Positions 15,502 to 39,383 of a stretch of DNA of 64,000 bases are shown in pieces. The position numbers and the translations under genes were made by a program. Under the pieces are notes generated by a model. It worked only from the letters and a program-made list of their open reading frames with translations, did not search any database and was not told where the DNA came from. How positions within the stretch are numbered: position 1 is the first letter of the stretch; every line of letters begins with the position of its first letter. Source of the stretch: a virus (Duplodnaviria; Caudoviricetes); the IMG/VR virus record IMGVR_UViG_2854078061_000001, positions 1 to 64,000 of that record, one strand, 5' to 3'.

Positions 15502-15777
15502 TTACAGTAAACTGTCACAAATGCATTCGGTCGGGCTTTCAAACATCGACTCAGTCCATAGCCATGGGATTTCCCTTAGCGTATAGAAATCATCGTCATC
15601 GGAATATCCATTGACTTCATATGTATTGCCGCTATAGTTGACCATACTATCGTTACAATAAAGAGTTCGTTTACCTGCTGAAGGACCATACAGGACGGGA
15701 TAATCGCGGTCGCCAACCAAATCCGAACGGATCGTTACCAGATCACCCGGCTGATACAATAAACTATCCATCACCAT
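15502..15777 (-). CDS. SH3/KOW-like paralog with CxCxxLL tag
   Basis: GDLVTIRSDL...WTESMF...ECICDSLL. Confidence 0.75.
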   Translation of the reverse strand: MVMDSLLYQPGDLVTIRSDLVGDRDYPVLYGPSAGKRTLYCNDSMVNYSGNTYEVNGYSDDDDFYTLREIPWLWTESMFESPTECICDSLL

Positions 15778-15787
15778 CACATTCACC

Positions 15788-16063
15788 TCACAGCAAAGAT
15801 TCACAGCAGCATTCGTTTACCGACATCGGCTCAAACATTTCATCAGACCAGAACAGACAATCAGGGTCATTGTCGATTTTGTAATAACCCTCATCATAAG
15901 CGATGATTTTATGAACCGACCCTCTATATTTTCCGATATTATATACAGTCCCGGGTTCGCGTCCAGCTTTGGGACCGGAACGCATACGATACTGCATGTT
16001 TCGATCAATATCGTCGCGAACTTTTACGAGGTCGCCAATTTCATACAGGTATTTCCTTTTCAT
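15788..16063 (-). CDS. SH3/KOW-like paralog with CxCxxLL tag
   Basis: GDLVKVRDDI...WSDEMF...ECCCESLL. Confidence 0.75.
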   Translation of the reverse strand: MKRKYLYEIGDLVKVRDDIDRNMQYRMRSGPKAGREPGTVYNIGKYRGSVHKIIAYDEGYYKIDNDPDCLFWSDEMFEPMSVNECCCESLL

Positions 16064-16071
16064 GATTCACC

Positions 16072-16344
16072 TCACAGCAGCGGCGTGCAGATACATTCGT
16101 TGGGTGCTACGAACATCTCGTCCGTCCACCGATCGCAGCCATAATCTTCGTCGATGTAATAGCGGCCATTGCGCTTGCCGGCAATATGAACCACAGTGCC
16201 AAGCCGCTGCGCCTGAGAATAAGTAAGGGTGGCACTGACATCATTTGCTCGGTAACCGGAACGCATATAATACTGAACACCGCGCTCCAAATCAGGCCGA
16301 ACAAACACTTCCTCTCCGTTTTTGTACTGATAATATCTTGACAT
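16072..16344 (-). CDS. SH3/KOW-like paralog with CxCxxLL tag
   Basis: GEEVFVRPDL...WTDEMF...ECICTPLL. Confidence 0.75.
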   Translation of the reverse strand: MSRYYQYKNGEEVFVRPDLERGVQYYMRSGYRANDVSATLTYSQAQRLGTVVHIAGKRNGRYYIDEDYGCDRWTDEMFVAPNECICTPLL

Positions 16345-16365
16345 CGCTCTACTTCCTCCATTCCA

Positions 16366-16641
16366 TTACAGCAGTGAATCGCAAACGCACTCGTCCACGA
16401 CAAGCGGCTCAAACATTTCATCAGACCAGATGCAGCCATCGATTCCTTGTGCTTTGTAAACACCAGAATCTGATCTGATCTTTTCAATGACGATCTCTTG
16501 TCCTGCGTATTTTTTCATCCAGTCAAAAATCATCCAACGTTGGCCTTTGTTTTCGCCAGACAGCATTTTATAATCTTCATCTTCCGAGAGATCAAGCCGA
16601 ACGCGGACTCTGTCGCCAGGGTGATACATGTAATCAGTCAT
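16366..16641 (-). CDS. SH3/KOW-like paralog with CxCxxLL tag
   Basis: GDRVRVRLDL...WSDEMF...ECVCDSLL. Confidence 0.75.
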   Translation of the reverse strand: MTDYMYHPGDRVRVRLDLSEDEDYKMLSGENKGQRWMIFDWMKKYAGQEIVIEKIRSDSGVYKAQGIDGCIWSDEMFEPLVVDECVCDSLL

Positions 16642-17459
16642 TCTGTTCCTCCATCATCAAACCAGTCCGACACACGATCAGACATTTCGTCCATCTTATC
16701 CTGGTCGGCCTTGACATAATGCATCGTGACACGCTGGCTGCTATGCTTAAACTTTTCTTGAAGCATCTCGATCGTTTGCCCAGATGTACCAGCCTTTTTC
16801 GCTGTCTGAAGTGCAGCCATTGCATAGGTTTTGCGCATGGTATGAGTGGACAGATCAATATCCAGCTCACACGCCTTCCCTGCTTCTTTCAAGATCCGAT
16901 AGAATCCGCGCACTGTCAGAGGACCACCCTTGCGACTGCGGAACAGATAATCAGATTGACTGATTTCAAAATTCTGTTCATCGAAATAATCTTCCAAAAT
17001 GTCGGCTGCCATCTTGGGGATCTTGCACACATTGCGCTTACGAGTCTTTTCTTCGATCAGTTCGACATGCTCTTTCACACTGCCATCCTGTTCATAAACA
17101 TCTGCCGTTTTCAAGTTGAGAAGATCGCCACAACGAATGCCCAAACTGCACCCGAACACGAAAATCGCCTTGTTGCGTAGACGAAACTTGGGGTCGCCAT
17201 TGGAAGCGAGATAATTCGCCAGTTTCTGGAAATCCTCTTTGGAACGAATCGGATCAGCAGGCGAAGGTTTGATGCGGCCATCCTTTGTATAAAGGCTGTT
17301 GGTTGGCTTTGTCTTGTGCTTTTTCTTGCGAGCGGCAGCCACGATGTCCCAAATCATTTCCTTCAGCTCGGCTTCGCTCATGGTGATGTGAGCTTCGGAA
17401 CCAGGCTGTTGCGGGAACTGAACTACGCGATCCTTACGCTTACGTGCTGGTTCTGCCAT
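16638..17459 (-). CDS. Tyrosine recombinase (integrase/Xer family)
   Basis: GIRCGDLL, STHTMRKT, HSS..VTMHY catalytic residues. Confidence 0.88.
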   Translation of the reverse strand: MAEPARKRKDRVVQFPQQPGSEAHITMSEAELKEMIWDIVAAARKKKHKTKPTNSLYTKDGRIKPSPADPIRSKEDFQKLANYLASNGDPKFRLRNKAIFVFGCSLGIRCGDLLNLKTADVYEQDGSVKEHVELIEEKTRKRNVCKIPKMAADILEDYFDEQNFEISQSDYLFRSRKGGPLTVRGFYRILKEAGKACELDIDLSTHTMRKTYAMAALQTAKKAGTSGQTIEMLQEKFKHSSQRVTMHYVKADQDKMDEMSDRVSDWFDDGGTE

Positions 17460-17483
17460 TGATCTTCATCCTTTCTATGTAAA

Positions 17484-17687
17484 TCAATATCTATGTTGGT
17501 GTTTTTCTCTATAACGCAGGTTATGAGTGTATAGCTCTTTATCGAAATCGTTGATCATGCGACATTTCTCTTTGTACTGGTGTTGCTGTGTCAGCTCGAT
17601 TTCGACGTACTGCTGGCGCTCCTGACAGTGATCGTGACACCCGGGATAACGCTTGGGAGCCACACAATAATGGCATGGATTCTGCAT
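17484..17687 (-). CDS. Small Cys/His zinc-binding hypothetical protein
   Basis: PCHYC...GCHDHC. Confidence 0.55.
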   Translation of the reverse strand: MQNPCHYCVAPKRYPGCHDHCQERQQYVEIELTQQHQYKEKCRMINDFDKELYTHNLRYREKHQHRY

Positions 17688-17703
17688 TTTCAAATCATTC
17701 CAA

Positions 17704-17979
17704 TCATAGTAAACTTTCGCAAACACAAGCAGCGCTGTATTTGTCCTGCGTCAGGAACATCTGGTCCGTCCAGGCATATGATTTATTGTCTTCTTCAATG
17801 AAGTATTGACCATCAATATGTTCTGCGATATGAACGGTCTTACCTTCGAGCTCTTTCATTTCGTCGACAACAGTGTTGTATGTTTTTGGATTGGGGCCGG
17901 ACATCATAAAGTAGCTGCAATTCTTTCTGAGATCTCGCTTTACGACCACTGCGTCACCGACATCGTATCTGTATTTCAT
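17704..17979 (-). CDS. SH3/KOW-like paralog with CxCxxLL tag
   Basis: YRYDVGDAVVVKRDL...WTDQMF...ACVCESLL. Confidence 0.75.
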   Translation of the reverse strand: MKYRYDVGDAVVVKRDLRKNCSYFMMSGPNPKTYNTVVDEMKELEGKTVHIAEHIDGQYFIEEDNKSYAWTDQMFLTQDKYSAACVCESLL

Positions 17980-17987
17980 AGTTCACC

Positions 17988-18257
17988 TCACAGAAGGCTA
18001 TCACAGCAACACTCATTGATAGAAATAAACATCTCGTCGGTCCAGCCATAACCGATCTCGTTCAGAGTGTACCCACGTTCCCCATCGCGAGGACCTTGAA
18101 TCGTAAAAATCTTTCCAGCCTGATCCGCCATTTGATCAATAACACCGTAGTAGGTATTGTCCCCATTGTGGCGACCTGACCTCATACGATAAATTTCACT
18201 GCAGTTCAGATCCGGGCGAACCATTACTTTATCGCCTGGCTTATACATCAATTCCAT
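17988..18257 (-). CDS. SH3/KOW-like paralog with CxCxxLL tag
   Basis: YKPGDKVMVRPDL...WTDEMF...ECCCDSLL. Confidence 0.75.
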   Translation of the reverse strand: MELMYKPGDKVMVRPDLNCSEIYRMRSGRHNGDNTYYGVIDQMADQAGKIFTIQGPRDGERGYTLNEIGYGWTDEMFISINECCCDSLL

Positions 18258-18282
18258 ATTTCTACCTCATTTTCTTTTTATC

Positions 18283-18531
18283 AAAATCACTTTCTAAATC
18301 CGATGCTCTGGAAACGGGAGGACGCACGATCAGGGACTTCTGTCACGCGACCTGGCGCGTGACTTTCGTCCCGGATCGAAGGACGAGTGTTTCTTGACAA
18401 GGATTGGCTGAGGCCAGCTGCACGATCAGGGGCCTATGGCGGAGTGCAGCGGCCGATTGCTGTGGTATTCTTCTTAACATCCGCCTTGGGCGTGATGCTC
18501 GCTCTTTTGGAACGATATGCAAAGTGATTTT
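18283..18531 (-). ncRNA. Retron-like msr/msd ncRNA, copy A
   Basis: 11-bp terminal inverted repeat AAAATCACTTT, following G, two hairpins (second with bulged A and CAA loop), ATTTAG before the 3' repeat. Confidence 0.7.
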
Positions 18532-18543
18532 TTTGTTTACTGA

Positions 18544-18891
18544 TTACTGATTGGGCTCATCGAATTCGATTTGTTCGCCCATGGATGCAGCCGTTTCACA
18601 GACTTCATCAAACAGGACATCTCTGCCGGCTTCCAACATTGCCTGGTGAATGCGCGGCTCTGCGGCGGCCACAATGGTATCGCAGAAATTGGTATCGTCT
18701 GTGTTGATCGATTTCAGATTCAAACTTTCCACGATCTCTTTGACATCCTCAGGGCCCCAGAACACCAGGGCTCGCCGATCCTCTTCGTAGACCACTTCTG
18801 TTTCGATGCCCGTGGAATAGTAGATCATATCCGCGACCTTTTCGAGCTCCTTCGATGGGACCTTTCCATCCCGACACATAATTTCAATCAT
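18544..18891 (-). CDS. Acidic hypothetical protein between RT and ncRNA A
   Basis: AAGGAG RBS; D/E-rich 115 aa. Confidence 0.6.
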   Translation of the reverse strand: MIEIMCRDGKVPSKELEKVADMIYYSTGIETEVVYEEDRRALVFWGPEDVKEIVESLNLKSINTDDTNFCDTIVAAAEPRIHQAMLEAGRDVLFDEVCETAASMGEQIEFDEPNQ

Positions 18892-18923
18892 AGATCATCA
18901 CTCCTTGTGTGTGTCTCCATTTT

Positions 18924-20156
18924 TTATGCAACAACGCCCTCTTTGGGACGAAGATCCTCTTTGAGCATCGCAATGATATCGGTGCCGAACTTCGCATTGT
19001 AACGACGGATCAGCTCGTCGATCACCTCAGGCTCGACCATGTGATAATAGTTGAGCTTGCCATTGAACTTTTGCAGATCTTCCAGTTCCCATGTTCTGCC
19101 GTGCTGCTTTGCATTGATATAATTCGTCATAGCCGAACGGAACATTTTAAGATTGCGCCAGCCAACCGTGATCTGATTGTCCTTGTTCCACATCAAGCCG
19201 AGACACCAGTTCTTGCTGGAGTGCCGGTTGCCGTAATGCGTTTTCGTTTCGTTCAGAGTAAACGGCGCATGAAAGAAGTTCAACGCGTCAATGATAATCT
19301 GCTGAATTTCCATCGGGTCAAAATGATGATAACAGCTGATGAGAATGTCATCTGCATATCGTGTGAAAGTGAACTCGCGATCGATTCCGTCCTTTGCTTT
19401 ATAGCCATAGCACAGCTTGCGAGTGATACAGTGATCAAACGGAATCATCATCACATTAGTAAGCCACGGACTGATGGGAGTTCCCTGCGGCAGGCCGTTG
19501 CGAAGGAAGCACAGGTTGACCGCCTTTGCCAGTTCATCTCGGCCACGTGCATCCCGCATGATCAGAGCAAATGGATAGATCACACTCATCATGCCGAGCA
19601 GAAAATCCGGTGTCGTGCTGGGGAAGAAACCATGGAAGTCGAACTTGACCGCCCAATGATTTTGATAATTTACGACCTTTTTCATGCCGGTCGCCTCATC
19701 AACGACGGTTTTATTGTGGCCTGCTTGATGCTTACGGACTGCATCGATAAAGCTGCGATTGGGAATATATGCGAAAGCATTCGTGTGATAATCTGCAATC
19801 ATAAAGCTCTTCAGTAGTTCCCGCAGCTCGATCAGTGCATCAGAAAGAGTTTCATCTGGCGCATCAATGGGTCGCCAACCGCCAGATTTCTTTGGGATCT
19901 CAAAGTGAGAATAGTGACTCGGGATATCGCTGGATTCAAGCGCCGTATACTTCACGTTGTAGTCCACCAGCTTCTCGATCATCTCAGGAACATTTGTGAT
20001 AGCGCGAAGTTTGGAGGTTAAATCGTTGCGGCACACGGTCATTGTGGATGTGTTGCTGCCGCCATAGTGCAGTGCTTCTACATTCTGGACACCGGCAAGG
20101 ATCTCATCAAAAGTGATTTGCCGGGTCTTAGGAGGATTCAGATATGTAATGTACAT
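18924..20156 (-). CDS. Retron-type reverse transcriptase
   Basis: IPKKSGGWRPIDAP, KFDFHGFFPS, LPQGTPISP, FTRYADDILIS; no maturase or endonuclease domain. Confidence 0.92.
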   Translation of the reverse strand: MYITYLNPPKTRQITFDEILAGVQNVEALHYGGSNTSTMTVCRNDLTSKLRAITNVPEMIEKLVDYNVKYTALESSDIPSHYSHFEIPKKSGGWRPIDAPDETLSDALIELRELLKSFMIADYHTNAFAYIPNRSFIDAVRKHQAGHNKTVVDEATGMKKVVNYQNHWAVKFDFHGFFPSTTPDFLLGMMSVIYPFALIMRDARGRDELAKAVNLCFLRNGLPQGTPISPWLTNVMMIPFDHCITRKLCYGYKAKDGIDREFTFTRYADDILISCYHHFDPMEIQQIIIDALNFFHAPFTLNETKTHYGNRHSSKNWCLGLMWNKDNQITVGWRNLKMFRSAMTNYINAKQHGRTWELEDLQKFNGKLNYYHMVEPEVIDELIRRYNAKFGTDIIAMLKEDLRPKEGVVA

Positions 20157-20176
20157 TGTTTCTCCTTTATGATTTC

Positions 20177-20442
20177 ATCGTGATCTAAATGGGTTTCTTG
20201 AGGCTAAAACGCGTGCAGCAGGAGGTCCCGATCATGATTGGATGCTGAAGTCGGCTATATAACCGCCTTCGGATGACCCAAAACTGGTCGATTCGAGCTC
20301 TGTGGGAGCGCCGACGGCCGGTGCCATAAGCTTGTTTTGCAATGTTGATGCCTCAGGGGGAGGACCCCCCTCTTCTTAACAATTCGATACACTTGGCTTG
20401 ACCTAAGTGCGCTGTTTATGAAAAACAACTATTCATCACGAT
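20177..20442 (-). ncRNA. Retron-like msr/msd ncRNA, copy B (directly upstream of RT)
   Basis: Inverted repeat ATCGTGAT/ATCACGAT, G at 20434, same two-hairpin msr fold. Confidence 0.8.
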
Positions 20443-20461
20443 TTTTTTATTTACGATTTTA

Positions 20462-21142
20462 TCAGAACGCCATGACGCTCTCTTCACCCAGAATGAACGG
20501 GGTTGCAATGATCTGCTTCTTCAGCGGCTTGCCCTCCACGAAATTGATGAAGTTCGTAATCGCCAGACAGCAGATGAAACGAACGGTTGGTGCAACACCC
20601 TGAACGATGCCACATGCGGACACCGGCGTACTTACCTTTGCTTCCTCGTGAGTGAAGTTCATGGAGTTCTTCAGATTGTCGATCTGCTTACGATCCTTCC
20701 AATCGGCCGACCAGCACTGTGCATCATACAGGCCAGTGCGGATATCGAACACACCGAGCAGCTCAGGATTGTATTTGTTCTTCTCCAGGAACTGCTTGCG
20801 AATCTCGATGCTATCCACGGCCAGGAACACATAACCCTTGACGGTTTCGCCCTGCCAGCCATTGGGCATCAGGACCAGATCCTCTTTGATATCAGGATTC
20901 ACATTGCACAGGATGTTGCCCACAGCTTCCACCTTGGGATGAGCGATATCCTGCTGGAAAAACATCTGATTGACGATATTCTTGGGTTCGACAAAGTCCA
21001 TATCCCACAGAGTGAACTTGGTCAGACCGTATCGTGCCAGCAGTTCAGCCACAGTAGAGCCGACCGAACCACAGCCGATGATATGAATGCGACCCTTAAC
21101 AGACGCAGGGTCAAACACCATTTCGATTTTGCTCAGATCCAT
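20462..21142 (-). CDS. E1-like ThiF/MoeB family activating enzyme
   Basis: IIGCGSVGS, WDMDFVEPKNIVNQ, PKVEA, LAVDS, SACG. Confidence 0.9.
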   Translation of the reverse strand: MDLSKIEMVFDPASVKGRIHIIGCGSVGSTVAELLARYGLTKFTLWDMDFVEPKNIVNQMFFQQDIAHPKVEAVGNILCNVNPDIKEDLVLMPNGWQGETVKGYVFLAVDSIEIRKQFLEKNKYNPELLGVFDIRTGLYDAQCWSADWKDRKQIDNLKNSMNFTHEEAKVSTPVSACGIVQGVAPTVRFICCLAITNFINFVEGKPLKKQIIATPFILGEESVMAF

Positions 21143-21156
21143 TGTTGTTTCCTTTC

Positions 21157-22122
21157 TTAGTCCTGAAATGCTTCAGCGTAGGGATAGCAGCTCGAATTCC
21201 AATTGTTCATCAGGTCATTCGGATTCTCCTGATAATACTTCATCAGATTGGATTCGCTTCCCTTGCTCTTGGCTGAATCGATCTTAGGGGCGGCTCCACC
21301 CGTGACAGTTTTCAGCGCCGGGTTCGTCGTGGCTGCCGGTTTCGTTTCTGCTTTTGTTTTCGTGGACGCGGCTGCGGTGTTTGTGTTACCAACGAACGCG
21401 CCTCCCCGACAAGCTGTTGTACCCGCGCTGTAGCTGCCGGAGTAAGCTGCACCATTGTAGTTGCCGCTGTAGCCACTGTATGTAGTTGTGACCGGCTTTT
21501 GGACGAGCGCTTCCGCCTGTTCGAGAAACCCTTTCGTATCGGCCTCTCCAATCGTCACTTTGACATCATCGCCGCTGTAGATGACATTGTCCGCCATGTC
21601 CACAACACGGACGTTATACTCCCGCCGCTTGTTCCAGATCATAAAGACGTAGTAATCCTCAGAGCTCAGAGTATCAATGAGATCCCACTGATTCTGCATA
21701 TCCACACCGCTGGGAGAAGTGCTCATGTTCACATGACTGTGTCCCTGGAACCGCAGCGTATTAAAGGATTCATCGTCCAGCTCATACAGCCAGGTCGTAT
21801 ACTTTTCCTGGTCCGTATTCACTGTTGCGCCCGTGACCTGCTGCGGATAAACCAGGATCTTGGTGATTTGGAAGTGAGTCTTATCAATGCGATTCACCAG
21901 ACCGTGCCAGGCGACCTCGGTACTGAAGTGATCGATCAGGGCACACATCTCGTGATAAGCTTCCAGAGTGAAATTCACCTCGACTGCGTCCTTGGCAGGC
22001 TTGGAAAAATTCTTGTTAAAGGAGAACTTATCCGCCTGCAGATTGCCCAACGCAGAAGCCTGTGCATAGAACTCCTGCAAAATCCCTTGGATCAGTTCGT
22101 CATTCATCTTAACCGGCTGCAT
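21157..22122 (-). CDS. JAB/MPN metallopeptidase
   Basis: TEVAW and GHSHVNMSTSPSGVD (HxH..PS..D) motif; low-complexity C-terminal tail. Confidence 0.82.
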   Translation of the reverse strand: MQPVKMNDELIQGILQEFYAQASALGNLQADKFSFNKNFSKPAKDAVEVNFTLEAYHEMCALIDHFSTEVAWHGLVNRIDKTHFQITKILVYPQQVTGATVNTDQEKYTTWLYELDDESFNTLRFQGHSHVNMSTSPSGVDMQNQWDLIDTLSSEDYYVFMIWNKRREYNVRVVDMADNVIYSGDDVKVTIGEADTKGFLEQAEALVQKPVTTTYSGYSGNYNGAAYSGSYSAGTTACRGGAFVGNTNTAAASTKTKAETKPAATTNPALKTVTGGAAPKIDSAKSKGSESNLMKYYQENPNDLMNNWNSSCYPYAEAFQD

Positions 22123-22135
22123 ACTTCAAACCTCC

Positions 22136-23610
22136 TTATGCCGTTTCTCTGCTTTCGTTTTCCAGAATCTCAACCACCTGTTTGATGGTGTAGAGATTGC
22201 CATCCTTATCTTCCAGACACTTCCGATTACTATAATCGCCGAACAGCTTTTCCATCATCCATTCGACGACCGTAGAATCCGTCCAGTTGATATAGGAAGA
22301 AGAAGTTACCAGAGTAGACAAAACGCCGATGTAATCACGACGAAGAGCCAAATCCTGAAGCATACCGCGATAGCCGCCGTAACAGGTAAACCGGTCGATA
22401 TGCGGCTGAGGAAAACGATCCTTCATCAGGTCTTCTCGGTGATTCATGTTAGTGCTTCTGACGGCTTCGACGCGGCAGTCATCATAGACAATCCACTCGC
22501 AGTAGACACGCAGATTGAACCGGTGCTCTTTCCAGATAGCCAGGAACAACTTCTTGGTGAGATCCATATCATACGGGCTCTCCTCGTAGATGTAGCTGGA
22601 CATCTTATCCTGCTTTTCGACATACTGCTTAAAAATATCTTCGTTGTAGTCATTCAGATAGCAGTTCACGCCGACCCACAGCTGATTGCCGGACTTATCC
22701 AGAGCGATAAGAGATTTGTTCGCCTTGAAGAAATCGACCAACTCCTTCTCATCGTCTCCAGAGTTGCAGGCACGATTCCGGAGCACCAGAAGCTTCATCT
22801 GCTCTTCATCCACCTGCTTCATGGCATTGCGGGCGCTGCTCATGTAATCATTGACGTTGTTCTCTGCCCGGCGGACACGTTCTTCCTGATCGTGGATCGA
22901 GCGGGTGAAGTTCTGACTGCAGAATCCCTTGAGCATGCTTTCGACTTTCTTGCCGTAGAAGTCATAAGCTGCACAGATCTTGTCAATTGCCGCATTGAAC
23001 TTGTCATACTTCTGCTCAGCCAGCATCTTCAGCAGATCGAGTTCATCCCTGGTTGCCGGGTGATCCTTGAATGCCCACGGAAGCAGACGAGGCAGACAGC
23101 TCATCATCATCTGCATGACCTGGATTCTCTTGGGCGAAGGAGCGAACACCATGGTCGCCTGCTTGGTTTCGTTCTGGTAGACCAGAGCGTCACCGCTGCG
23201 ATCGACATACAGAGAGACATCCTCAAGACGAACCCAGCCCGCCTTCTTGTAGTCCTCGTCGAACATTTTCACCTGCTTGATGTAATCGGCCGCTTTCTTG
23301 TTGGGGATGAAATGGAAATACAGGCCGAGCTTGATCTTTGTGAACGGACCACCTCACCAGCGTAATAGGCTGCTGTCAACTTCTCATCGTCCGGGAGCCG
23401 GATCTCGTTCTCGACCACCAGAGACTGCATGATGCCTTTGTTCTCGGGATCAGCGGTAAAAGTCGCCAGCCGCTCCTCGTTCATCACTGCCCGGAGAACG
23501 GTCAGGACGGTGTTATCTTCGGTTTCGAATTTGTTCCTGCTCTTGATGTCAGAGAAAAATTCGTTGCATTCGTTCGAGCCGAGCTTCGTCAGCAAACCAG
23601 TGAATGCCAT
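22136..23610 (-). pseudogene. E2-like (UBC-fold C-terminal) coiled-coil protein, frameshifted near 23352
   Basis: C-terminal FPQPHIDRFTCYGG motif; the two ORFs join into one frame if 1 nt is added after ...YYAGE. Confidence 0.6.
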
Positions 23611-23797
23611 AGTTACTTCCTCCTTAAATTCATATCTTGCATTTAAAAAGCCCAGATACTGGACACATATAAGGCAGACTTTAACCGGCCTGCCAGCGGC
23701 TGCAATGCTACTTATCTGTTGTAACCAGAACAGATTTATATTCGGACTTTATTCGAGATTCGCTCGAACAGATTCAGGATCAGACTCCGTTAATTCC

Positions 23798-24028
23798 TTA
23801 ACGGGCGTTGTCCATCTTCTGAACACAGACCAGATAAGCCTTCTCGGTAACGTGCATATCGGCAAAAGTCTTGTCCATGTCGCCAGGCTGCAGAACACAG
23901 CCATCCAGAGAAGTCTGACCAGCAGAGTAGTTGATATCGTTCTCCTCCAGGCACTGACGCAGGGTAGTGTCCTCAGTAGCCATGACAGTCTTACGGTTGG
24001 TGTTGGTACCCACAGTGATCTTCAGCAT
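23798..24028 (-). CDS. Prokaryotic ubiquitin-like (beta-grasp) protein
   Basis: 76 aa with pattern LKITV...TTLRQCL...LDG..L...DKTFAD......L; heads the E2-JAB-E1 operon; ends KMDNAR. Confidence 0.7.
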   Translation of the reverse strand: MLKITVGTNTNRKTVMATEDTTLRQCLEENDINYSAGQTSLDGCVLQPGDMDKTFADMHVTEKAYLVCVQKMDNAR

Positions 24029-24164: not shown

Positions 24165-24596
24165 TTACTCAGCGGCGGCCTCAGGCTCAGCGTCGTTCTC
24201 GATGGTGATAGCAGCGTTCATAGCGGCCTCATCAGCAGCGATAGAGCTCATAGCCTCGGCGATCTGCTCCTCGATCTTGGTGCAGTTCACGATAGCCAGA
24301 CCCAGCTTCTCACGAACGAACTCGTTGATCTCCTCGACAGTGGTCTTGCCGTTGGGAAGCTCGATGCTCATGGTAGCGACCTTGGGAGTGGTGACGGAAT
24401 TCTTTGCGAAAGTCACGCCCATCTCATTGGCAGAAGCAGAACCGCTGACACCGATAGCGCAGACAGGCTCCTTCTCCTTGCCCTCGCCCTTGTACAGAAC
24501 CAGAGCCTCGGGACGGAACTTCTTGACCTTCTTCAGGGTCTCGATGTCGTAAGCGGAAGTGACGAAAACGTTGTTGTACTTAACAGTTGCCTTCAT
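24165..24596 (-). CDS. Hypothetical protein
   Basis: AAGGAG RBS; strongly biased codon use. Confidence 0.65.
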   Translation of the reverse strand: MKATVKYNNVFVTSAYDIETLKKVKKFRPEALVLYKGEGKEKEPVCAIGVSGSASANEMGVTFAKNSVTTPKVATMSIELPNGKTTVEEINEFVREKLGLAIVNCTKIEEQIAEAMSSIAADEAAMNAAITIENDAEPEAAAE

Positions 24597-25744: not shown

Positions 25745-25828
25745 TGGTGCGGCTAGAGGGACTTGAACCCTCACTCACTGGGAACTGGTACCTAAAACCA
25801 GCGTGTCTGCCTATTCCACCATAGCCGC
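25745..25828 (-). tRNA. tRNA-Leu (anticodon UAG)
   Basis: Cloverleaf; CTGGT-TT-TAG-GT-ACCAG; long variable arm; encoded CCA. Confidence 0.9.
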
Positions 25829-25838
25829 ATATAAATTA

Positions 25839-25964
25839 GGTACACCTGCACTCCCGATTCTCCAAGCAGGACAACTTCCATTCCGGACCACAATATCCGA
25901 AACATTAGGGCGCAACAAGGAAGTCGTGGCTATTTTATTGATCGTACTTTTACCACCATGTACC
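25839..25964 (-). ncRNA. Unidentified multi-stem structured RNA
   Basis: GGTACA/TGTACC closing stem; CGACTTCC/GGAAGTTG, TTCGGA/TCCGGA, CCTGC/GCAGG helices. Confidence 0.45.
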
Positions 25965-26075
25965 TATTCCCCATTTTGTTAGAGACCTAATGGGCAAAGC
26001 TGTCTACCTACACCGGTTGTGGACGGACTTACCCGGCTGGATTTGTATGTAGGAGTCTCAAACCGTCGCACACCA

Positions 26076-26150
26076 TGGAGCAGCGAATGGGAGTCGAACC
26101 CACATCTCCAGCTTGGAAGGCTGGCATATTAACCGTTATACGACCGCTGC
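26076..26150 (-). tRNA. tRNA-Gly (UCC)
   Basis: CCAGC-CT-TCC-AA-GCTGG; GGTTCGA T-loop; CCA. Confidence 0.92.
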
Positions 26151-26283
26151 ATATAAACCCAGCTTACAAAGCCTTGTTGCTTTCGATACGATATAGACCG
26201 AAGCATCGTATTAAAAGAGCCGGGAATAACAAGAATGAGGTAAAAGGTCCCTGCTGAATAACATACCAAAAAGACAGGAACCC

Positions 26284-26355
26284 TGGTGCGATTGGATGGA
26301 CTTGAACCACCGACGCGCATTCAGCCTGCTGCTCTACCAACTGAGCTACAATCGC
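26284..26355 (-). tRNA. Atypical tRNA (Phe-like) with anticodon arm 4 nt short
   Basis: Intact acceptor, D and T arms and CCA; anticodon arm GCAGGCTGAATGC is 13 nt. Confidence 0.7.
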
Positions 26356-26443
26356 ATAAGATACTCGGCTTACAAGGCCAATTGCACCCTTTCGAGCGAG
26401 CCGAGAATAATTGACAAGAGTTATTATGTTACCCCTTTCGGGG

Positions 26444-26532
26444 TGGTGCCGCTACTGGGATTCGAACCCAGATGATATTACTACCGTCGAATCTTAAGTT
26501 CGATGTGTCTAGCCTGATTTCACCATAGCGGC
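26444..26532 (-). tRNA. tRNA-Leu (UAA)
   Basis: TCGAA-CT-TAA-GA-TTCGA; long variable arm; CCA. Confidence 0.9.
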
Positions 26533-26623
26533 ATATCAAAGCTGTCTGTCCAGCAGCCAACCGTCTTTCCGATTTGTCAAACCGTTTCGCTCTACATACA
26601 AGCTCCCGACTCAATCGAGCCGG

Positions 26624-26703
26624 TGGTAGCCCCACCCGGATTTGAACCGGGAACAATAAGCAAGGTTTGAACTTGCCGCGTGTGCCAATTTCGCCATGGG
26701 GCC
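26624..26703 (-). tRNA. tRNA-Leu (CAA)
   Basis: GCAAG-TT-CAA-AC-CTTGC; CCA. Confidence 0.85.
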
Positions 26704-26743
26704 ATATATGCTCGTCTTTCCGAGCCGCCACTGCTTGCGCAGG

Positions 26744-27061
26744 TCATTCCTCTACTTCAAACACCATGTAGTACATGTGATTATCTTCACCGTTATCGAC
26801 CGATGCTCCGATAACATACTCAGGATATGGGTCCAACTCACATCCGCAAAAATCAGCGTAGGATTCAGTGTCAACTTTCACTGCATCTTCGTACCGAGCG
26901 GCCTCATCTTCAGGCATCCCATTGAGAAAACACTGAAAGCTGACAGCGGCAAAAGCAATCGCATCGTCTCTTGATTTGAATGCTTTATCAATACTTACTG
27001 ACTTGTAGACATCAGCTTTCTCGTTGGTGTAATCGCTTGCGACGATATACATCTGAATCAC
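26744..27061 (-). CDS. Acidic hypothetical protein
   Basis: ORF overlapping the upstream stop. Confidence 0.55.
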   Translation of the reverse strand: MIQMYIVASDYTNEKADVYKSVSIDKAFKSRDDAIAFAAVSFQCFLNGMPEDEAARYEDAVKVDTESYADFCGCELDPYPEYVIGASVDNGEDNHMYYMVFEVEE

Positions 27062-27729
27062 TCCTTATCAAAGATATCGGTATACTTGGTATACAGCTTG
27101 CCGTTATGGAAGTAGGTATTGTAATCGCACTGTGTCACATACCACCATCGCTTCTGATGACCAGCCAACAGAAAATCGTGCAGATGATAGGTTTCCTTAT
27201 AGTGCTCATCCACCCGCTGACGGAAGGTGAGCTCGTCGATCTGGTTAGAATACAACACATAATCAGCAATCTTATTGATATCGTTCTCGGTCATATCGTC
27301 ATCCACAACGAAAACCACACGAACGATTTCACCGCCAACACGATGAATTTTGTCCAGTTCGTCCATATGATGCAGATGATAAACAACCCGATCGAATCTT
27401 TCAAACGGGAAAAGCATGATGTCTGGATCATTCTTAACATCATAATAACTGGTGTGCAATTCAGTCTGACGACCAAGCTTTCTGCAAGTATCGAAAAAGT
27501 ATGCCCACCACTTCTGATGATGAGGCCACTTCCATAATGGATCACCGCCGCCTGATACGGACACCCAGTTGCAATCAGCGCAATCATTATAAAGGGCGCT
27601 CCATAATTCATCACGAGAAGAATACTCCCCTGTCGGTGTCATCTTGAGCTTGTTATTGCGGACGATACACTCAGGGCAGCTGTAGTGGCACCCGAAGTTC
27701 GTGATAATACTGAGATATTTGTCAGCCAT
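27058..27729 (-). CDS. Radical SAM protein
   Basis: CHYSCPEC (CxxxCxxC), SVSGGGDP. Confidence 0.85.
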   Translation of the reverse strand: MADKYLSIITNFGCHYSCPECIVRNNKLKMTPTGEYSSRDELWSALYNDCADCNWVSVSGGGDPLWKWPHHQKWWAYFFDTCRKLGRQTELHTSYYDVKNDPDIMLFPFERFDRVVYHLHHMDELDKIHRVGGEIVRVVFVVDDDMTENDINKIADYVLYSNQIDELTFRQRVDEHYKETYHLHDFLLAGHQKRWWYVTQCDYNTYFHNGKLYTKYTDIFDKE

Positions 27730-27735
27730 TTTGAT

Positions 27736-27990
27736 TTACTCCTTGTTAATAGTAAGCTGAATAGACCAATAATCTCTATCGTTTCCAGTGTAAATCAAAG
27801 AGTCCAAAACTTCTGAGTGCTGATCGCACTCGTGATAAATTTCTGGACCATGGCTCTGAAGCCATCCAGACTCCACTCCGAACTTTTTAACGATTTTTCC
27901 TTCATCAATGACTGCGATGCTATCGGAAGCCTTATCTTTCGCTTCTTCAATCATCCATTCAACGATTTCTTTGATATTCAGATTTGCCAT
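27736..27990 (-). CDS. Hypothetical protein
   Basis: ORF with RBS. Confidence 0.55.
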   Translation of the reverse strand: MANLNIKEIVEWMIEEAKDKASDSIAVIDEGKIVKKFGVESGWLQSHGPEIYHECDQHSEVLDSLIYTGNDRDYWSIQLTINKE

Positions 27991-28023
27991 GATTCATACC
28001 TTCTTTCAAAATGTTACTAAAAA

Positions 28024-28114
28024 TGGTGCCGGTAGCAGGACTCGAACCCGCGCCTCTGTCTTATCTGGACCAAGGGGTATAAACCCAGTGCTCTAGCCGC
28101 TGAGCGATACCGGC
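28024..28114 (-). tRNA. tRNA-Ile (UAU) with long variable region
   Basis: GCCGGTA/TACCGGC acceptor; GGG-TT-TAT-AC-CCC anticodon loop; CCA; 91 nt. Confidence 0.75.
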
Positions 28115-28133
28115 ATAAGAGAGGAGGATTTAA

Positions 28134-38867: not shown

Positions 38868-39383
38868 TCAATCGAACTCAATTTCATCCATACTTGCGAT
38901 AGCTTCCATACGGTCATTGTAAGACCGAATCAATTCTTTCCAGTTAGCGGGCAGACCATCGGTGCACAGATAGCACTTCTCACGCTTCCAGTCGTACCAA
39001 TCGAGTCTGACACCGAACTCTGACAAATCGAGGCAGTCACCAAATAAGCTGGTGGAAATCTTGCCGTCGAAGAAAAGGTTACTCCACGAGTTAACCGCAT
39101 AGGTGCGAGAGCTCTCATGGAAAATTTTCTTCCAGTTGCTTGCATCATACACAATGTAGGCGGTCAAGGGTCTTGCGCTTGAGGTTGCGATGTGATTGTA
39201 CTCACGGAACAGGGCTATTATGTCGCCCCATTCCATCGGAATTGCGTTTTCGATTGCATTCATACTGCTGTGCATCCTTTCTTTCGCACTACTTCCGTTC
39301 ATTTCTGTAATGCGACCGGGACCCCGAAGGGCCCCACGCACTGAGCCTAACGCCTTTTTATAGCCGCTCAGTCGGCTTTTCAT
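38868..39383 (-). CDS. Hypothetical protein
   Basis: ORF; start uncertain. Confidence 0.55.
   Translation of the reverse strand: MKSRLSGYKKALGSVRGALRGPGRITEMNGSSAKERMHSSMNAIENAIPMEWGDIIALFREYNHIATSSARPLTAYIVYDASNWKKIFHESSRTYAVNSWSNLFFDGKISTSLFGDCLDLSEFGVRLDWYDWKREKCYLCTDGLPANWKELIRSYNDRMEAIASMDEIEFD

Follow-up and report, generated by a model that had tools for sequence, protein, structure and literature searches.

A probable ubiquitin-like conjugation cassette co-inherited with a retron-type reverse transcriptase in a temperate gut phage

To our knowledge, bacterial ubiquitin-like conjugation, as found in Bil, in Bub and in the Cap2 protein of the cyclic oligonucleotide-based antiphage signalling system (CBASS), is so far known as a weapon of the host against phages. 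Bil operons (BilABCD, types I and II) are bacterial ISG15-like antiphage conjugation operons (10.1101/2023.09.26.559546; 10.1101/2023.09.04.556158), in which the genes for a ubiquitin-like protein (Ubl), an E2, a JAB peptidase and an E1 are arranged in the order Ubl-E2-JAB-E1 (10.1101/2023.09.26.559546). The JAB of the E. aridi Bil trims its Ubl by a single Ala, located just after the reactive Gly (10.1101/2023.09.26.559546). Retrons consist of a reverse transcriptase (RT), an msr-msd RNA and an effector; 13 types are distinguished, and type II pairs with an NDT-like effector (PMC7736814). Ubiquitin, ThiF and JAB are not mentioned in the retron classification of Mestre et al. 2020 (PMC7736814). 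Here a locus is described in which genes of both kinds lie side by side. It is found in a viral stretch of 64,000 nucleotides (nt), hereafter the window, which spans positions 1 to 64,000 of the IMG/VR record IMGVR_UViG_2854078061_000001 (Duplodnaviria; Caudoviricetes).

Genes for a Ubl of 76 amino acids (aa), a large protein denominated X, a JAB/JAMM metalloprotease and an E1 follow each other in the window, ahead of a retron-type RT (Table 1). The four proposed roles, their order and the lack of an E3 gene are as in Bil operons. It is likely that these genes form a complete thioester-type ubiquitin-like conjugation cassette, hosted by a temperate gut phage and inherited together with the RT as one accessory block; in sibling phages the operon is most likely a working conjugation pathway. 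The source record is a 108-kb IMG/VR provirus and the window encodes a terminase, a portal protein, a large serine recombinase and a tyrosine recombinase; the record is a temperate human-gut phage or provirus. A first-pass annotation of the window had proposed a phage-borne operon of four co-oriented genes, encoding a beta-grasp Ubl with a C-terminus trimmed by JAB, a coiled-coil E2-like protein, a JAB peptidase with the motif HSH..PS.VD and a ThiF/E1, linked to the RT. This reading held in part. The four genes lie on the minus strand at the positions then given, JAB and E1 are both intact and conserved, and carriage by the phage is borne out by the terminase, portal and integrase genes of the same record. 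The Ubl fold, the trimming pattern and the linkage to the RT in relatives also stood; the E2-like gene, in contrast, is not intact in this copy.

The beta-grasp fold, on which the annotation had staked its reading of the 76-aa protein, was found. The protein is confidently assigned a ubiquitin fold, in which a beta-beta-alpha-beta-beta-beta grasp of about 75 residues is followed by a flexible C-terminal tail. As had been noted, it ends in KMDNAR and not in GG. The C-terminus of the family is an invariant ...K-x-(D/E)-N-A, and most members stop exactly there; other members extend past the Ala by R, A, AA, LAA, VVM or NV (0-3 variable residues). In the window, Arg76 is the variable tail following Ala75. 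These sequences suggest a reactive end plus a disposable tail, Ala75 probably being the reactive end and Arg76 the part to be removed. The proposed trimming by JAB fits an invariant end followed by 0-3 variable residues, and the one-residue trim made by the Bil JAB parallels the Ala75-Arg76 arrangement.

JAB carries HSHVNMSTSPSGVD, fitting the consensus HxHx7Sx2D. Residues E69, H128, H130, S138 and D141, which make up the JAB/JAMM zinc site E...HxHx7Sx2D, are conserved in at least 97% of 73 relatives, and are invariant in the 22 that were aligned. The protein is recognised by PADLOC JAB models only (1.2e-4), and a Pfam search gave no match. The catalytic core corresponds approximately to residues 40-210. 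Residues from about 200 to 321 (window 21157-21600, minus strand) form a variable, low-complexity tail rich in Gly, Tyr and Ser, followed by Lys-rich and acidic-aromatic stretches, and the JAB proteins of many relatives feature an N-terminal extension rich in Arg and Lys. In one close relative (L007:7151-8129) the gene is split within the low-complexity tail into open reading frames (ORFs) of 283 and 135 aa, possibly by a frameshift or an assembly error.

The E1 matches Pfam ThiF (PF00899) at 6.2e-19, with 68.5 bits against a cut-off of 28.1. UBA5 is its best match in the PDB (1e-9), followed by MccB, TcdA, MoeB, ThiF and Cap2. The best PADLOC matches are CBASS E1-E2 fusions (1.3e-17), and only the Rossmann part of the protein matches Cap2 models. 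A GCGSVG ATP loop and residues D47, D49, N55, N58-Q59, K70, D110 and R115 are conserved in 61 relatives; GCGSVG, D47, D49, K70 and D110 are invariant, in agreement with the Gly-rich ATP loop and catalytic Asp of a ThiF adenylation domain. The same relatives share a single conserved cysteine, Cys177, within TPVSAC, and a ..AF end in which Phe is the last residue. The protein consists of one ThiF domain, and is 223-230 aa long in 67 of the 69 relatives listed, the outliers being of 178 and 255 aa. UBA5 is a minimal homodimeric E1, whose catalytic Cys is part of the adenylation domain; a short C-terminal peptide of UBA5 serves to recruit its E2, which lacks the HPN motif. By analogy, the phage E1 is probably a homodimer like MoeB, ThiF and UBA5, and its catalytic Cys would be placed, like that of UBA5, inside the adenylation domain.

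Protein X belongs to a large and unnamed family. A HMMER search of 1.84 billion representatives identified 1333 clusters, nearly all of about 480 aa; in deposited phage genomes X was found in one uncultured record only. The intact X of the relative L003 was used for all the analyses of this protein. The AlphaFold2 model (predicted local distance difference test score 93.5) features a MogA/MoaB-like N-domain, a set of helices, a coiled-coil helix of 53 residues (230-282) and an E2/RWD-like C-domain (284-491). The latter starts with a helix and two strands; two inserted helices and two further strands come next, and a loop with H404 and C410 (P..H404.....C410) leads to three final helices. In the model this corresponds to the UBC order, and Cys410 would occupy the place of the E2 catalytic cysteine. 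Among 56 diverse members, with identities of 20-60%, D32, H404 and C410 never vary, and P401, S437, N442 and D445 hardly do; the motif around the cysteine is PNPHIDxYxCxG. The clusters nearest to the C-domain among the named ones in a protein-language-model atlas are three viral Prok-E2_D clusters (score 0.88), a match to be taken as a lead only, and fold comparison of X retrieved, among others, the Bil chain 8tyz_C. Searches of X against Pfam, PHROGs, PADLOC, NCBIfam and PDB sequences returned coiled-coil noise only; the whole model found no match in the PDB by Foldseek, and in BFVD one unnamed family member only. The local pairing of the conserved cysteines of X and Prok-E2_D seen by hhalign was discarded as evidence. 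X is quite probably an E2-like carrier.

By fold, the C-domain is closest to non-catalytic RWD domains, those of Knl1, the SEA complex and Spc24/25. X might accordingly be a substrate or a structural adaptor using its RWD-like domain as a protein-binding module, with E1 itself tagging the targets, either from the adenylate or via Cys177; the lack of sequence similarity between X and E2 families goes in the same direction. Such a role is improbable, as His404 and Cys410 are invariant in sequences that have diverged to 20-60% identity, with four further residues close to invariance; an active site, and not a binding surface, would be expected to behave in this way. It is also quite unlikely that the Ubl is a carrier of sulfur or of an activated carboxylate, like ThiS, MoaD or TtuB, in a pathway modifying small molecules or nucleic acids, conceivably the DNA made by the RT, with X being a cofactor-type or scaffold protein and not an E2. 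MoaD and TtuB are indeed among the structural matches of the tag, the E1 is short, of ThiF/MoeB size, and finds its best family matches in ThiF/MoeB; moreover, JAB proteins act in carrier pathways such as CysO-Mec+. Sulfur carriers end, however, in Gly-Gly, whereas the tag ends in Asn-Ala, and sulfurtransferase, rhodanese and cysteine desulfurase families were matched by none of the eight module proteins scanned. The invariant Cys410, at the presumed catalytic place of an E2-like fold, and a gene order that is the one of Bil conjugation operons also argue against a carrier pathway.

Some observations weigh against a conjugation cassette. The tag ends in Ala rather than Gly, and the E1 features neither a separate cysteine domain nor a zinc site (no zinc-binding Cys pairs are found). 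In sequence searches of Pfam, NCBIfam, PADLOC and the PDB, X was not matched to any E2 family, and its hhalign comparisons with one Prok-E2_D protein and with a 12-sequence Prok-E2_D alignment were not significant. In the window, X is frameshifted. Finally, about 7 kb are missing from the sibling L041, 98-99% identical: the deletion starts midway in X, takes in the RT and reaches a gene of 709 aa. When L041:5662-8903 is compared with window 15542-22950, JAB, E1, the RT, the adjacent 115-aa protein (p115), several SH3-like paralogues and the tyrosine recombinase are found to be deleted. The broken X and the L041 deletion mark the block as accessory and dispensable, and knock-outs are feasible for this reason.

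The frameshift results from one missing C between 23353 and 23352, within GGTGAG-GTGGTC, as revealed by the alignment of the DNA with 11 relatives. All 11 have the extra C, and their X is one ORF of 491-493 aa; in three of these loci the ORF list begins X 19 codons further upstream. The related phage record MT835544 similarly has a single ORF of 491 aa, compared with 113 plus 378 aa in the window, where the two ORFs overlap by 4 nt, and close IMG/VR relatives holding the whole X gene have one ORF. The coiled coil and the PHI..TC.G-type motif pointed out in the first-pass annotation are present; the gene is frameshifted here, which that annotation had missed, and the 113-aa ORF is its N-terminus. 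The deletion does not fall in a homopolymer run, and may represent either a genuine mutation or a fault of the assembly; split by the loss of one base, X is either inactive or mis-assembled in this copy. A natural two-gene form or a programmed frameshift was considered and rejected, as none of the 11 aligned relatives has the deletion and close relatives feature one ORF.

From the folds, motifs, conservation, gene order and synteny observed, we infer the chemical steps, the handling of targets and any coupling to the RT as follows. JAB would cut off the variable tail of the Ubl, Arg76 here, exposing the ...Asp-Asn-Ala75 end. The short E1, probably as a homodimer of the MoeB/ThiF/UBA5 kind, would adenylate Ala75, and may hold the tag on Cys177. 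The tag would then move to Cys410 in the E2-like C-domain of X, which probably dimerises via the coiled coil and selects targets by the N-terminal alpha/beta domain. As in Bil, no E3 gene is available in the cassette, and X would itself pass the tag to an amine of the target; JAB could also reverse the conjugates. Coupling to the RT may mean that the RT or its DNA product controls or aims conjugation, or that the tag is joined to the RT or to its multicopy single-stranded DNA (msDNA).

The RT is of the retron clade. It matches PADLOC retron RT_II-A at 1.7e-37 and NCBIfam retron St85 at 8.4e-42, with 143 bits, under the model cut-off of 235; relatives in deposited phage genomes are only 24-26% identical. 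An NDT-like effector was not found beside it: the neighbours are E1 and p115, which has no family matches in Pfam and NCBIfam.

The association of the cassette with the RT is conserved. The order p143-Ubl-X-JAB-E1-RT recurs in about 200 loci from phages or metagenome-assembled genomes (MAGs); its first member, p143, is a 143-aa protein encoded ahead of the Ubl in nearly all relatives, and had been overlooked in the first-pass annotation. When distant X relatives were used as bait, X was followed by JAB and then by E1 in 60 of 60 IMG/VR loci; E1 is cut by the contig end in one, and the RT comes next in the rest. The Ubl is located before X wherever these loci extend far enough upstream. Identity to the window proteins is 22-25% for X, 38-43% for the RT, 50-57% for E1 and 40-56% for the Ubl. 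The same order is found in 22 Clostridia MAG contigs wherever they are long enough, except in L104, in which the RT was not found after E1. A scan anchored on E1 identified 344 viral stretches, and the RT follows E1 in 79 of the 80 best loci. Operon and RT are thus linked in relatives, as the first-pass annotation had supposed. The terminases of five distant carriers are 47-51% identical to the one of the window, which indicates that block and phage have diverged together and that the block is an old component of the lineage. What lies downstream of the RT varies from lineage to lineage, and extra genes are found in some between JAB and E1 or between E1 and the RT. One encodes a protein of about 200 aa, of no recognised family, and its position varies: between JAB and E1 in one set of relatives, after the RT in another. 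A DUF6273 gene is located between E1 and the RT in five relatives. Both look like mobile insertions within the block (L101:9151-9762, L052:12084-12668, L086:10083-10910).

Synteny is what points to a link between the cassette and the RT. The two might also be independent modules whose proximity is due only to descent, the Bil-like tagging system and the retron working separately, for example as prophage-borne defences against superinfecting phages. This is a tentative but serious possibility. All the carrier loci belong to one phage lineage, as judged from the terminases, and the adjacency may trace back to a single ancestral event; the spacer ahead of the RT is long (305 nt), and genes have been inserted between E1 and the RT in some relatives. 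One record, 72% complete, keeps Ubl-X-JAB-E1 and has no RT in its 104 kb, and prophages often carry defence genes. Yet adjacency and order persist in about 200 loci, while the genes downstream of the RT and many upstream ones vary; and defence cargo is usually variable among close relatives of a prophage, whereas this block has diverged in step with the terminase. That tagging genes and retron work as one machine, in either of the ways outlined above, is conceivable, if rather doubtful.

Table 1. Features of the locus and their positions in the window (minus strand)
Feature	Position	Strand	Description or evidence
p143	24165..24596	-	conserved 143-aa protein directly upstream of Ubl
Ubl	23798..24028	-	76-aa ubiquitin-like beta-grasp protein; end KMDNAR, stop TAA
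Two terminator-like hairpins, Ubl/X gap	23650..23694	-	pattern scan, consensus match only
X, N-terminal piece (residues 1-86 of intact 491-aa X)	23353..23610	-	ORF of relatives and alignment
113-aa ORF (X N-terminus, then out of frame)	23269-23610	-	ORF list
X, rest (residues ~87-491)	22136..23352	-	ORF of relatives and alignment
378-aa ORF with PQPHIDRFTCYGG	22136-23272	-	ORF list
JAB/JAMM metalloprotease, 321 aa	21157..22122	-	JAMM motif, PADLOC JAB 1.2e-4
E1, single-domain ThiF/MoeB/UBA5-like adenylating enzyme, 226 aa	20462..21142	-	Pfam ThiF 6.2e-19
Structured spacer, 305 nt, candidate retron template (non-coding RNA B)	20157..20461	-	fold z-score -2.2
Retron-type RT, 410 aa, YADD motif	18924..20156	-	PADLOC RT_II-A 1.7e-37

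Genes in the locus are spaced unevenly (Table 1). X and JAB, as well as JAB and E1, are separated by 13-14 nt, the Ubl and X by 187 nt, E1 and the RT by 305 nt. The hairpins in the gap between the Ubl and X could work as a partial terminator, leaving the mRNA of the tag in excess of the mRNA of the enzymes. No match to p143 was found in Pfam, NCBIfam and PDB searches; the protein is possibly an extra component of the cassette, or a target. Many small proteins of this phage end in the C-terminal tag CxCESLL, which was considered as a mark of the substrates of the cassette; it appears not to be one, as it is restricted to the close clade (the window, L003, L036 and L037) and missing in distant phages hosting the cassette. 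A cluster of seven tRNAs lies just upstream of the operon (window 25745-28746, minus strand), and includes three Leu and one each of Gly, Ile and Pro; the tRNA at 26287-26355 is an Rfam match only, missed by ARAGORN. A full-length match to the Pistol ribozyme is found at window 39311-39377, on the minus strand (Rfam RF02679, 66.5 bits, gathering score 34.5). A short E1 of 227 aa, 29% identical (1.6e-25 against the E1 profile), is encoded by cultured Xanthomonas and Erwinia jumbo phages (L207:3805-8557, Xanthomonas phage PhiXhv-15, PV764602.1), close to a 141-aa protein ending in ...KASGG. None of the eight genes tested near the jumbo-phage E1 matches the Ubl, X or JAB profiles, and no Pfam RT match was found among those tested.

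No description was retrieved in a literature search for phage retrons or RTs associated with ubiquitin-like, ThiF or JAB proteins. A phage lineage widespread in the human gut would carry a full conjugation pathway of its own. Should cassette and RT work together, they would represent a new class of retron effector and also a compact, portable tagging system. As one machine, they might mark or disarm factors of the host or of rival phages in a programmable way, and would be the first case of a ubiquitin-like conjugation pathway serving a phage and not directed against it. Even if cassette and RT do not cooperate, the X family, with over 1300 clusters, broadens the known range of E2-like enzymes.

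Among the systems to which the locus may be compared, retrons share with it an RT nearest to type II-A/St85 and a structured spacer preceding the RT; the locus differs in having no adjacent NDT-like effector, in being phage-borne and in an RT score below the St85 cut-off. An E1, an E2-like protein and a JAB are similarly associated on mobile elements in the PRTRC (ParB-related, ThiF-related) cassette, whose protein B is a Prok-E2_D protein, and in type II CBASS with Cap2 and Cap3. One UniRef name labels a Prok-E2_D protein as 'PRTRC system protein B'. Of the PRTRC NCBIfam models (A-F, ThiF, ParB) only the ThiF one, TIGR03736, gave a hit, and a weak one (3e-4; 20 bits, cut-off 145); none was matched by Ubl, X, JAB or p143. 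The E1 stands alone, and no E2-E1 fusion, ParB or CD-NTase family was found among the eight module proteins scanned. The likeness to the UBA5-UFC1-UFM1 pathway lies in the position of Cys177 within the adenylation domain and in the conserved C-terminal ..AF end of the E1, the tail of which may by analogy play a role like that of the UBA5 one. Only the Rossmann part of the two proteins aligns significantly, and common descent is seen no further than the ThiF superfamily.

The cassette differs from Bil in several respects. BilD has an inactive domain, a mobile cysteine domain and a zinc site, whereas the E1 described here is a protein of 226 aa with one adenylation domain. The Bil Ubl has a reactive Gly, while the phage tag ends in Ala. 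The E2-like domain, which matches no known E2 model by sequence, is the last part of a 491-aa protein that also comprises an additional N-domain and a coiled coil. Lastly, Bil is a defence against phages, which tags phage tail proteins, whereas this cassette is carried by a phage, next to an RT. As neither a tandem-domain E1 nor a Gly end was found, the cassette is not classified as Bil; by analogy, it may work like Bil, with a minimal E1 of the UBA5 kind.

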